DNA of 64,000 nucleotides, taken from positions 32,001 through 96,000 of IMG/VR virus record IMGVR_UViG_3300021960_000030; one strand, written 5' to 3'. The notes under the pieces were generated by a model. The model saw nothing but the letters and a program-made list of their open reading frames with translations, was not told the origin of the DNA and ran no database searches. Position numbers and translations under genes: made by a program. The stretch comes from a virus. Positions 24,834 through 48,169 of this stretch are shown piece by piece (the first letter of the stretch is position 1; each line of letters begins with the position of its first letter).

Positions 24834-25403
24834 TCATAGTATAGGCACAGGATTGCGGAGATCCAGGGGATCGTGGACAGCAAGTGGACTGGCACACTTC
24901 CAGACGTACCCGAGACTGTATCGAATAGGTTCACTCACAGGAGGGCAACCTTGATGCCATATTGTACTGTCAAACAGCACTAATCGCCCTGGTTTGCACT
25001 CAACATGCATAGTTTCACCCTGTTCAGTATAAAACAGAGTGTCACCATCGCCTCTGATGTAATACAGACCACTGATTCTGTCGCTTCCCTTTAGAACATC
25101 CCAATCCGTGTGACTTTGGGCGTTCTGCCCAGGCGTCTGCACGTTCAGCAGGCAGCGATCAAGTTTTTGGATTCTATAATCCAACAGGATGTCATTGCAC
25201 ACTACCATATGCAAATAGTCCACAAACCAATGAGGAGCAATGGGTGCAATCCATCGCTCCTCATCGATAAGCAACTGACCAAAGAACCGACTCACTTCAT
25301 ACTGACCGTAGGGTGAGTTGGTATAGGTTACAGGTATAAGTTGAAACTCTTCTGCATTCTTATTCACCATCCATTGTGGGAAATAGTTATCAACTATCAA
25401 CAT
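24834..25403 (-). CDS. 2OG-Fe(II) oxygenase
   Basis: SHTD...GDTLFY...KPGRLVLFDSTIWHQG..P...RYSL. Confidence 0.85.
   Translation of the reverse strand: MLIVDNYFPQWMVNKNAEEFQLIPVTYTNSPYGQYEVSRFFGQLLIDEERWIAPIAPHWFVDYLHMVVCNDILLDYRIQKLDRCLLNVQTPGQNAQSHTDWDVLKGSDRISGLYYIRGDGDTLFYTEQGETMHVECKPGRLVLFDSTIWHQGCPPVSEPIRYSLGYVWKCASPLAVHDPLDLRNPVPIL
24838..24895 (-). promoter_or_regulatory. Early promoter cassette copy 6: GTGCCAGT-N7-CTGTCCAC-N29-TATACT
   Basis: Repeated element embedded in the 3' end of the oxygenase gene. Confidence 0.75.
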
Positions 25404-25905
25404 GTTGAATACGTTCAGAAATAACCTTAATCATGATAGCACGGATCTCTTCAGGGGCAAAACCTTGAGTGTTAAAGAAGCACGAGTTGCTACCAGCATT
25501 ATATGTATCAAACCCATCAAGGTGTGCAACGTTGAGTGCCTTACCGATCACACCATCAGAGTATGCACCCTCACCGATTGCAAAGGTGACGTATGACACA
25601 TCAGGGTTAATCTTGCGGCAGATGTAGTTGTTCTTGAACCAGCGTTCGATAGCATTACCAGCATCTTGCTGCTTCTTACCTTCAAACACTGCGATCAGTT
25701 TGCCCTTGTAGAACCATGCACCACCATCAGGTTCGCAGGCACCTTTACCACCAGGGATCTGATTCTTCTTCAACTTCTTCTGCAATGTCACACCAGTATA
25801 TTGCAGAACGTCTGCAATCTCTTCCTTGATGACTTTACATTGGTTGTCAAGTTTGCGAGCATGTGCATCAGTAGCAACCATGCCTTTCTGAATGCCGCCT
25901 GCCAT
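25390..25905 (-). CDS. EcoRI-family type II restriction-like endonuclease (orphan, ~171 aa)
   Basis: Catalytic PDGG...EGK (PD-(D/E)xK), followed by AGNAIERWFKN and YVTF..GEG, matches EcoRI PDGG/EAK/AGNAIERSHKN/YVLFLEG. The ORF track start is 25968. ATG 25905 lies downstream of the -10. Confidence 0.8.
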   Translation of the reverse strand: MAGGIQKGMVATDAHARKLDNQCKVIKEEIADVLQYTGVTLQKKLKKNQIPGGKGACEPDGGAWFYKGKLIAVFEGKKQQDAGNAIERWFKNNYICRKINPDVSYVTFAIGEGAYSDGVIGKALNVAHLDGFDTYNAGSNSCFFNTQGFAPEEIRAIMIKVISERIQHVDS

Positions 25906-25930
25906 TGTCTTGTGTCGTTTGGACTTCTTC

Positions 25931-25990
25931 ATTATACACACAGAAAAGGGGCGGTGGTGCCGCCCCATGTGGAGGTTGATGGACTGTCAC
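25931..25990 (-). promoter_or_regulatory. Early promoter cassette copy 7 (GTGACAGT-N7-CCTCCACA ... TATAAT) driving the nuclease
   Basis: Left half-site at 25983-25990 and perfect TATAAT at 25931-25936. Confidence 0.7.
25943..25966 (-). terminator. Rho-independent terminator inside the promoter spacer
   Basis: GGGGCGG-CACCA-CCGCCCC followed by TTT(C)T on the minus strand, just after the lysozyme stop. Confidence 0.65.
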
Positions 25991-31387: not shown

Positions 31388-32055
31388 TTAGATTCCCTCT
31401 TCATGATTAAATCCCAGGACTTATATGGTGCCCAGTGTTTGAGTTGCTGATCCTGTTTGATCCTTTCTAGTTTATCAGGAGATGGTGTCTTTCTACTCAG
31501 TTTGAATGTATCTTTACCACGCACAAACTTAGCATGAAAGATAGGTGTGCCACGTTTGATTACTATATCGTCATCAATACGATGAGGAACAATACCAATG
31601 GGCAACGATCTCATCCATGATGAGACAGGAAATGTGCCAGGGACAACACTAAACCCATGTTGTGCAACTGTGGGGTGTCCAGTATATTCTACCCACACAT
31701 TCTTGGCATCAGTCCAGAACAATGTATTGTATCTGATTTGTATCTCAGGCAGTTCATCATTCCACCAGTTAGGACTAATCATGAACAGATCTTGGAGTTT
31801 ATCTCCATGCGTATCAGATCCGATCATGCGATGCTCATTGCTACACCTGAAGTGTAGATCAAATGGGAAATAGAATGTCCACCTATTCTTACACCACTCT
31901 TTGTGTGCTGGGCAATACATATGGTCGTGAGACTTTATCCCATCATTGTATGCAATGGTGGGTGTAATCTCCCAATCTTCAGCAAAGGTAGGAATCTGGT
32001 AGTCCTCATCAGGACCAGAAGGAATCACTGATGTGTGATATACATTTACTGCCAT
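31363..32055 (-). CDS. Hypothetical protein (DUF6065-like, CPA motif)
   Basis: YCPA...FYFPFD...VVPG...IKRGTPI and a C-terminal KCPF. Similar to 33709..34431. Confidence 0.6.
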   Translation of the reverse strand: MAVNVYHTSVIPSGPDEDYQIPTFAEDWEITPTIAYNDGIKSHDHMYCPAHKEWCKNRWTFYFPFDLHFRCSNEHRMIGSDTHGDKLQDLFMISPNWWNDELPEIQIRYNTLFWTDAKNVWVEYTGHPTVAQHGFSVVPGTFPVSSWMRSLPIGIVPHRIDDDIVIKRGTPIFHAKFVRGKDTFKLSRKTPSPDKLERIKQDQQLKHWAPYKSWDLIMKRESKCPFRIHF

Positions 32056-35974: not shown

Positions 35975-36547
35975 TTAGTTCCACTCAGGCATTGCATCTC
36001 TAGGAAGTACGGGATCCTGATTAGGATCAAATGGGCAACCGTCACCCTCAACCATATGGGTGACATACAGTTTATAGTCGGGATCATTCACCAGATCGGG
36101 GAATGCTTCCTCTGCCTCTGCACGAGTCATCCATGCAGGGATGTCCTCATTATGAGACCATGGTTTATACTTATCGATCGGTTGTCCGTTCTCATCATAC
36201 TCCAACTCACCGTACTTGGCAAGAGTTTCATCCTTGACAGATTGAACTGCCTTGAAAAACTTACCTTCTTTTGCTGCTTCACCAAACACTCCTGCCTTGA
36301 TGTCATCAAACAGTCTAGCAAACTGTGCACCAGATGCACCATAACCAACGATTCTTGCTGCGAAAGGATCAACATGACCATGATCAGGAATCCACTCGTT
36401 AAACTCAAGTTTCCAATCGAGTGTTATCTCATCGGGTGCATCTACCCAGCGAAGTTTAGCGCCAGGACCAGTGTAGATCTCAAACTCTGCGCCTGGGTCT
36501 ACAATGTCGGTTGGAAATCCTGTTGCGGAAATAAGTGCTCTTTTCAT
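35975..36547 (-). CDS. Probable tail-fibre assembly chaperone-like protein
   Basis: Follows the Gly-rich fibre gene. R..GYG..GAQF..LFDDI..G....F..AV..VK resembles phage fibre-associated chaperone families. Confidence 0.5.
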   Translation of the reverse strand: MKRALISATGFPTDIVDPGAEFEIYTGPGAKLRWVDAPDEITLDWKLEFNEWIPDHGHVDPFAARIVGYGASGAQFARLFDDIKAGVFGEAAKEGKFFKAVQSVKDETLAKYGELEYDENGQPIDKYKPWSHNEDIPAWMTRAEAEEAFPDLVNDPDYKLYVTHMVEGDGCPFDPNQDPVLPRDAMPEWN

Positions 36548-47350: not shown

Positions 47351-47368
47351 ACACTTCCTTCACACGGA

Positions 47369-47441
47369 CTCCTCCACCTGGGCTCGAACCAGGGACATTT
47401 TGATTAACAGTCAAACGCTCTACCGACTGAGCTATAGAGGA
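47369..47441 (-). tRNA. trnN: tRNA-Asn(GTT)
   Basis: Cloverleaf with TAGCTCAG, anticodon loop CTGTTAA and GGTTCGAGCCC. Confidence 0.92.
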
Positions 47442-47466
47442 ATATTCGCTATTCGCAAATAGCGAA

Positions 47467-47539
47467 TGGAGAATAGCGGACTCGAACCGCTGACATCCTG
47501 CTTGCAAAGCAGGCGCTCTACCAACTGAGCTAATCCCCC
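47467..47539 (-). tRNA. trnA: tRNA-Ala(TGC)
   Basis: GGGGGATTAGCTCAG...TTGCAAG...GGTTCGAGTCCGCTATTCTCCA, with the G3:U70 identity pair. Confidence 0.93.
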
Positions 47540-47870
47540 TGGCGACCCTTTTATTGACGAGGTAGAGTCGAACCCCGTGGTGAATATAAGGTATGGACCC
47601 CCATATTCTTTTTCACTATGAAGAATGAAACATCATAGCGCCAGATGAGGGCAAGGGTATCTGCCTACGATAATCTACGATGCAGTATAGGGGACCCTTT
47701 ATTTAATACAACGTTCCTTGTTGTACCCAAAGATGGAGTAAGCGTAATATACCTCATAAGGATATAACAGAGGCTTACCCTCTATGTTGCCGTGTGTTTG
47801 TGAGACTAAATCAGACTGATTTGATAGACGCCCCACAGGATTCTATCATAAAATCTGAACCACGGTATCA
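47540..47870 (-). ncRNA. Putative structured non-coding RNA(s) inside the tRNA cluster
   Basis: About 330 nt with no credible ORF and several hairpins. Ends in CGCCA directly abutting tRNA-Ala. Confidence 0.4.
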
Positions 47871-47929
47871 TATTTATGTGCAATCATCAACGAATATTAA
47901 CGTTTTTGAGCACAAAAACATGTTTTTTG

Positions 47930-48001
47930 TCATCTGTCTGGGAATCGAACCCAGTTTCCAACTCCCTTGTCGGGGTGTCCTTACCAATAGACTACCAGAT
48001 A
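47930..48001 (-). tRNA. tRNA-like element with a non-canonical anticodon arm
   Basis: Good acceptor stem, D arm and T arm (CTGGG-TTCGATT-CCCAG). The anticodon arm CCCC-GACAA-GGGA is aberrant. Confidence 0.55.
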
Positions 48002-48005
48002 CCAA

Positions 48006-48079
48006 AGCCCACGGTCGGACTTGAACCGACGACCTACGGTTTACAAAACCGTTGCTCTATCCAGCTGAGCTACACAGGC
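48006..48079 (-). tRNA. trnT: tRNA-Thr(TGT)
   Basis: Cloverleaf with anticodon loop TTTGTAA. Confidence 0.92.
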
Positions 48080-48082
48080 ATA

Positions 48083-48169
48083 CGGAGAGTTAGGGATTTG
48101 AACCCTAGAAGAGGTAACCCCCTTACAGCATTTCCAGTGCTGCTCCTTCAACCACTCGGACAACTCTCC
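48083..48169 (-). tRNA. trnS: tRNA-Ser(GGA)
   Basis: Long variable arm and anticodon loop CTGGAAA. Confidence 0.92.

Follow-up and report, generated by a model that had tools for sequence, protein, structure and literature searches.

The classical explanation for palindromes missing from phage genomes is avoidance of restriction sites imposed by the host. GATC is totally absent from Staphylococcus phage K, and host restriction sites have been lost from Bacillus phage and coliphage genomes. Viruses also carry endonucleases of their own. In the restriction-modification (R-M) systems of chloroviruses, and in T4 with its hydroxymethylcytosine DNA and cytosine-specific nucleases, host DNA is destroyed while viral DNA is immune by modification. 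The recognition core of EcoRI is AATT, and the sites of EcoRI and MunI share this central AATT. In prokaryotic chromosomes that carry orthodox type II R-M systems, in which the restriction (R) and modification (M) enzymes act independently, the genome is depleted of its own cognate site, and the more so the longer the system has been resident (Rusinov et al. 2015, PMC4687349). In the literature that we searched, neither avoidance of AATT by cyanophages nor a change in a tRNA through avoidance of a restriction site was described.

We analyzed a stretch of 64,000 nucleotides (the window; positions 32,001 to 96,000 of IMG/VR virus record IMGVR_UViG_3300021960_000030) from a contig of 111,864 bp that is ~63% complete. 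The nearest named phages are the T4-like Synechococcus phages S-SZBM1 and S-WAM1 (~75-80% identity over 10-17% of the query). The window sequence was also found in metagenome runs from estuarine and marine samples. The source is an estuarine or marine T4-like cyanophage, Kyanoviridae-like. A sequence-only reading of this DNA had drawn attention to a tRNA-Ala gene whose acceptor stem has a wobble pair where the Watson-Crick pair would create AATT, and had taken the wobble as independent support for lethal selection against AATT. We found that AATT purging is very probably the reason for this base, and that the strength of the selection can hardly be judged from the wobble alone.

The tRNA-Ala gene and its cyanophage homologues

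ARAGORN predicted five tRNA genes on the minus strand of the window at 47366-48169, four of which were confirmed by Rfam. The tRNA-Ala(UGC) gene (47467..47539, minus strand) is 73 nt long, has no encoded CCA, and scored 71 bits with Rfam RF00005, for which the gathering score is 29. Its anticodon was called as tgc by ARAGORN, and both alanine identity elements, the G3.U70 pair and A73, could be read from the sequence. On its own strand, the acceptor stem consists of G1-C72, G2-C71, G3.U70, G4-C69, G5.U68, A6-U67, and U7-A66, with A73 as discriminator; positions 1-10 of the tRNA correspond to window 47530-47539. The second wobble beside G3.U70 is therefore real on the minus-strand reading, as had been claimed: position 5 is G (47535, minus strand) and its partner at position 68 is U (47472, minus strand), with no compensation to C. 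An A at position 5, the base that the relatives have, would make positions 5-8 AATT; the G of the window turns AATT into GATT. The U at position 8 is the conserved U8 of tRNAs. In the minimum-energy fold (ViennaRNA), the acceptor, D, and T arms were kept and the anticodon stem was extended by two pairs.

The tRNA-Ala genes of syn9, S-RIM2, S-RIM8, and Sf-FS3 read GGGGAATTAGC and are identical to that of the window at 72 of 73 positions, the sole difference being the A at position 5. We scanned IMG/VR using a query with N at position 5, which returned 122 homologues. The reading GGGGAATTAGC (A5) was shared by 118 of them; the other four had G5 in some form, two of these as G5.U68. A5 was also the state in several Kyanoviridae genera. 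The expectation of the sequence-only reading that cyanophages containing AATT would have the Watson-Crick base was thus borne out by the alignment, in which position 5 alone sets the window apart; G5.U68 was far from being the norm in AATT-rich phages.

The difference also stands alone in a longer alignment. A 175-bp block consisting of tRNA-Asn(GUU), a 24-nt spacer, and tRNA-Ala (47368..47542, minus strand) was identical by blastn at 174 of 175 positions to S-RIM8 (L003) and to an S-RIM8-like IMG/VR contig (L058). The one mismatch, at 47535 (A to G relative to S-RIM8), removes the sole AATT of the block. The chance that one random substitution lands in this AATT is 4/175, or 2.3%; among the 525 possible single substitutions in the block, two remove AATT and keep the pairing, a chance of 0.4%. 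Because the nearest relative of the block has A5, a derived A-to-G transition in the window lineage would be the simplest history, with the direction taken from parsimony rather than from a rooted tree. The case consists of one substitution in one lineage. We looked for a further AATT-free phage with this tRNA among the other nuclease-bearing or AATT-poor genomes (G001-G009 and S-CREM2) and found none, as no tRNA-Ala gene was present in any of them. Logan contigs from four estuary or marine runs matched the tRNA flanks exactly but ended inside the tRNAs, which co-occurring phages have in common. Since the 112 kb contain no AATT at all, a sequencing error at 47535 is not a serious alternative.

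The cluster also contains tRNA-Thr(UGU) and tRNA-Ser(GGA) (48006..48169, minus strand; ARAGORN and Rfam). No AATT-linked differences from the nearest relatives were found in tRNA-Asn, tRNA-Thr, or tRNA-Ser, and Rfam detected no structured RNAs in the window beyond the four tRNAs. Four of the 37 AGCT sites of the contig survive in the tRNAs, in 0.34% of its bases (window 47430, 47528, 48063, and 48068). The tRNA-Asn and tRNA-Ala genes have one each, tRNA-Thr has two, and tRNA-Ser has none. Three of the four are in D-arms, where AGCT survives because G10-C11-U12 is fixed. The depleted AGCT thus persists where RNA structure fixes the site, in contrast to the AATT of tRNA-Ala, which was removable. 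Between tRNA-Ala and tRNA-Thr lies a conserved non-coding block (window 47540-48005, minus strand). At 47929-48001, ARAGORN called a "tRNA-???" with a 2-nt anticodon that had no Rfam match. Window 47647-47731 is 97.6% identical to L108, in which ARAGORN predicted a permuted (two-piece) tmRNA between tRNA-Thr and tRNA-Ala.

AATT depletion and an EcoRI-fold nuclease

AATT does not occur in the 64-kb window, where 319 +/- 14 occurrences were expected, or in the whole contig, where about 340 were expected. Among the whole contigs examined, zero AATT was otherwise found only in G001, a sister contig of 73.9 kb that came from a different sample (233 expected). The two are about 86% identical in nucleotide sequence over 65 kb (~14% diverged), and G001 terminates at window position 36052, short of the tRNA cluster. 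Between them, 57-67% of the occurrences of TTAA, ATAT, TATA, GATT, and AATC, and 44-46% of those of AGTT and AACT, are lineage-specific. Tetramer turnover is thus high, yet neither contig has gained an AATT, from which it follows that selection against the site still acts and is, in effect, absolute. Of the 94 positions at which AATT is found in one relative or another, most differ in the window by a single transition, to AGTT or AACT in 34 cases and to GATT or AATC in 22. The change in tRNA-Ala, from AATT to GATT, belongs to the GATT/AATC type of this spectrum.

Other short palindromes were also found to be avoided. CCGG is absent from the window contig, and RGCY occurs at 0.16-0.19 of expectation. 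Across the T4-like cyanophage loci that we fetched (L005-L123, L154, and L155), CCGG was missing in nearly every one (0 against 3-40 expected), and RGCY (AGCT, GGCC, AGCC/GGCT) reached about 0.1-0.3 of the expected counts. Avoidance of CCGG and RGCY runs through the whole clade, unlike the loss of AATT, which is lineage-specific; AATT is at expectation in those loci. Observed counts were also well below the expected ones for TGCA in L132/G004 (5/55) and for GTAC in syn9 (L155; 38/137) and L126 (14/57).

A candidate for the agent of AATT loss lies in the window itself, at 25390..25968 on the minus strand (P0001; the real start is probably a Met at about 25905). Searches with the P0001 sequence gave no Pfam match and no PDB match by phmmer or profile, so its identity was drawn from fold comparison only. 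We built an AlphaFold model on 29 homologues (pLDDT 78). In Foldseek, the top five matches of the model were EcoRI (E = 5e-6), with the next hit at 1.6e-2. VIA-align against EcoRI (1ERI) gave Z 13.8 and an rmsd of 2.3 A over 150 residues, followed by Z 9.6 for the next match and Z 7.7 for MunI. Across the 29 homologues, D81, E96, and K98 (PD...E-x-K) and G104-N105-A106-x-E108-R109 (GNAIER) are invariant. The Pfam EcoRI family (PF02963) matched five of the 29 homologues weakly (best E = 0.011), and there is a precomputed PF02963 match on P0102. P0001 is thus a predicted EcoRI-fold nuclease with an EcoRI-like PD-(D/E)xK fold, and the depletion of the genomes suggests that its specificity would be the 4-bp AATT. 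A 6-bp specificity (a subset of NAATTN) was considered as the cause of partial depletion and rejected, as no subset was spared in S-RIM2 or other loci. In both the window contig and G001, the nuclease gene lies between a tail-lysozyme gene and a 2OG-Fe(II) oxygenase gene, a neighbourhood that differs from that in the other loci. For the homologue in S-CREM2, GenBank gives the annotation EcoRI-like, while the paper on this phage makes no mention of the nuclease. Its immediate upstream neighbour (L201:17383-19992) carries an annotation as a CRISPR-associated Cas9-like endonuclease and virion protein.

AATT depletion was found to accompany this nuclease gene. All 26 IMG/VR loci that encode a P0001 homologue are depleted, with a median observed/expected ratio of 0.37 (range 0-0.81), compared with 0.94 in 117 tRNA-matched cyanophage loci without the nuclease (Mann-Whitney p = 8e-15). 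S-RIM2, which has the nuclease, contains 78 AATT against 236 expected in 50 kb, whereas syn9, which lacks it, contains 358 against 368. A gene for a D12-class N6-adenine methyltransferase (PF02086) was located beside the nuclease or within ~1.5 kb downstream in 23 of 27 loci, and this layout in the relatives is that of an orthodox type II R-M pair. Phage-borne pairs of this kind (L124-L149, L154:39820-42370, L201:20073-22451) are widespread in marine phage contigs, S-RIM2, S-BM1, and S-CREM2.

In phage loci with both R and M, the depletion is graded, at about 0.07-0.65 of expected. In whole contigs the ratio was 0.08-0.16, with observed and expected counts of 42/337 in G002, 26/162 in G003, and 17/209 in G004. 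AATT is retained in tRNAs of such phages, namely in the tRNA-Ala of S-RIM2 and the tRNA-Met of G004. In the latter (tRNA-Met(CAT), L151:316-390), A37-A38-U39-U40 is one of the 17 remaining AATT of an R+M phage that is at 8% of expectation, and it is kept in all four relatives. No D12 or N6_N4 methyltransferase was detected in the window contig (~63% complete) or in G001, itself an incomplete genome, so that one may lie in the part not covered. In L137, L142, and L143, where the nuclease likewise has no methyltransferase nearby, the depletion is only mild (0.6-0.8), which fits poorly with a simple rule by which R without M means zero sites.

Origin and cost of the wobble pair

Our preferred reading, to which we give a probability of roughly 70%, is that the AATT purge drove the A-to-G change at position 5 of tRNA-Ala and that the EcoRI-fold nuclease of the phage itself was the most likely agent. 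The tRNA-Ala would have descended from the common cyanophage allele with AATT at positions 5-8. One A5-to-G transition would have removed the site and, with U68 unchanged, converted A5-U68 into the G5.U68 wobble. This would be the cheapest escape: U8 cannot change, U7 needs a double change, and only A5 to G or A6 to G keeps the stem paired. With the identity elements G3.U70 and A73 untouched and a cost of ~0.5 kcal/mol, the tRNA is presumably still functional. The nuclease would then be an enzyme that cuts AATT and would, rather than a host enzyme, be the agent, as the genomic depletion and the modelled fold suggest.

In most of the relatives, the nuclease and D12 methyltransferase would form an R-M pair under which AATT is depleted to varying degrees yet tolerated, tRNA genes not excepted. 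The window phage and its sister have the nuclease without an adjoining methyltransferase, so that any AATT of their own would be a cut site and none would persist. The order of events may have been the gain of an R-M pair, at which depletion starts, with tRNA sites among the last to be lost, and then the absence of the methylase, with which the tRNA site would go too. A broader proposal is that the phage carries an AATT-specific endonuclease without its partner methylase, is self-protected by having no sites, and leaves the enzyme free to destroy the DNA of the host or of competitors. Selection would then have removed each AATT from its genome, the one in the acceptor stem of a tRNA among them, and the R+M relatives, with AATT at 0.07-0.8 of expected and sites left in their tRNAs, would be earlier stages of the same path. 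We hold this tentatively, at a little under even odds.

The substitution was found to be cheap and to occur elsewhere. In the nearest-neighbour model, the cloverleaf has an energy of -26.9 kcal/mol with A5 and of -26.4 kcal/mol with G5, a cost of 0.5, and A6 to G carries no cost. The G5-C68 form gains 2.4 kcal/mol over the A5 form and is 2.9 kcal/mol more stable than G5.U68, which is expected to be a natural intermediate between G5-C68 and A5-U68. The identical G5.U68 allele was found in at least 10 AATT-normal contigs, two from IMG/VR (L071 and L112) and eight from metagenomes. In their flanks, the AATT-rich carriers either show no relation to the window or are further from it than S-RIM8: L164 is 91.7% identical, and L071 and L112 have just the tRNA in common with the window. 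G5.U68 is rare, then, but has arisen more than once and can be borne without AATT pressure, and its recurrence in other phages suggests that the allele is functional. Given these carriers, it may be standing variation and not a new escape mutation. A separate rare variant of the tRNA-Ala acceptor, with G5-C68 and G4.U69 (3' strand ATCTTCC), occurs in L042, L043, L152, L153, and L170; it has two adjacent G.U pairs (3:70 and 4:69) and is found in AATT-normal phages.

We considered the tRNA-Ile(GAT) of the AATT-depleted G004, which has G5.U68 before AUU, as an independent replicate. This was rejected, since all 29 IMG/VR homologues have G5.U68 regardless of their AATT content, and a G.U pair beside ATT is therefore not diagnostic by itself. 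Of the claim that AATT avoidance had remodelled a structural RNA, the part that stands is a base change in tRNA-Ala that removes AATT; a costly remodelling does not, given the small energy difference and the AATT-normal carriers. Nor does the wobble give independent support for lethal selection, being cheap, tolerated without AATT pressure, and of a kind that the tRNA-Ile control shows not to be diagnostic by itself. It is best described as a near-neutral escape, which alone would say little about selection strength. The evidence on that strength is in the AATT counts of the genome and its sister, not in the tRNA.

A change this cheap could have been a coincidence, in which G5.U68 is a neutral polymorphism of the window lineage unrelated to AATT avoidance. 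The AATT-normal contigs with the same allele (two from IMG/VR and eight from metagenomes), the small energy difference of 0.5 kcal/mol, and the tRNA-Ile control, in which G5.U68 before AUU can be normal, are what such a polymorphism would predict. We nevertheless consider it improbable: G5.U68 is rare among AATT-containing phages (2/122, or 4/122 for any G5 form), the sole difference in 175 bp had a 2.3% chance of falling in AATT, and an A5 allele could not persist in a genome with none of about 340 expected AATT. Even less probable, to the point that we give it very little weight, is that G5.U68 is ancestral, on a path from G5-C68 through G5.U68 to A5-U68, so that the tRNA never held AATT. 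G.U is a standard intermediate in stem evolution, and G5-C68 forms of a near-identical tRNA-Ala occur in the high-GC, bacteria-like contigs L156, L161, and L171. However, the window matches the A5-bearing block of S-RIM8 throughout tRNA-Asn, the spacer, and every other position of tRNA-Ala, which points to recent common ancestry with an A5 allele, and A5 is found in several Kyanoviridae genera.

The tRNA reading is unchanged if the agent was instead an AATT-cutting enzyme of the host (Tsp509I/MluCI-like) that drove the purge, the phage nuclease being incidental. We regard a host agent as unlikely, though less so than coincidence. It is the classical explanation for missing phage palindromes, CCGG is absent and RGCY depleted in nearly all T4-like cyanophage loci without an obvious phage nuclease, and the AATT specificity of P0001 is a deduction from depletion. 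What argues against it is that AATT depletion tracks the nuclease gene in 26 loci of varied phage backgrounds (p = 8e-15), and that P0001 has the EcoRI fold and the GNAIER element. In addition, the syn9 and S-RIM8 relatives, which have the same host genus according to phage records, show no AATT depletion.

Comparison with known systems

The tRNA-Ala of this phage offers a clean single-base natural experiment, which shows that selection on a DNA word can override Watson-Crick pairing in a structural RNA and that it takes the cheapest route, a wobble-preserving transition. A synonymous change can always rid coding sequence of an AATT, so purging can carry a cost in RNA genes only. These genes set a limit on purging, and they are also where AATT persists in methylase-carrying relatives, as in the tRNA genes of S-RIM2 and G004 described above. 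The larger context is a phage-borne family of EcoRI-like nucleases associated with graded to complete loss of AATT, in which the methylase-less window phage and its sister are at zero. Should the nuclease prove to cut AATT, a virus would here be immune through having no target sites, and the family would be a ready source of small AATT-specific nucleases.

The change resembles the compensatory-substitution model in that A-U became G.U by one transition with little stability lost. It differs in that no U68-to-C change followed and in that it is best explained by removal of a DNA site, not by drift towards G-C. The predicted nuclease is like the EcoRI/MunI family (PF02963; PDB 1ERI and 1D02) in having EcoRI as its best fold match and in the invariant PD...E-x-K and GNAIER elements. 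Unlike EcoRI, it has about 170 residues, against 261 in the solved EcoRI chain, has no Pfam match, and has a 4-bp AATT specificity that is deduced from depletion.

As in the chromosomes analyzed by Rusinov et al. 2015 (PMC4687349), the R+M phage contigs show graded self-depletion of the site. Here, unlike in those chromosomes, the carriers are phages, and the window phage and G001 lost or never had M and have zero sites. What the window phage shares with known cases of restriction-site avoidance in phages is that a short palindrome is lacking or scarce across the genome, in coding and non-coding DNA alike. Unlike in avoidance of the phage K type, the purge can be traced to one base of a tRNA acceptor stem across more than 100 homologues, and the suspected nuclease is encoded by the phage, not by the host. 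The tRNA-Ala case is a new, well-documented example of known restriction-site avoidance, reaching an RNA gene.

The more unusual part is that a phage encodes an EcoRI-like nuclease, lacks a methylase to go with it, and has a genome without AATT. Like the chloroviruses and T4, this virus carries an endonuclease able to attack DNA, from which its own DNA must be exempt. In those viruses the exemption comes from DNA modification, whereas in the window phage it appears to come from absence of the site, and an RNA gene therefore had to change.
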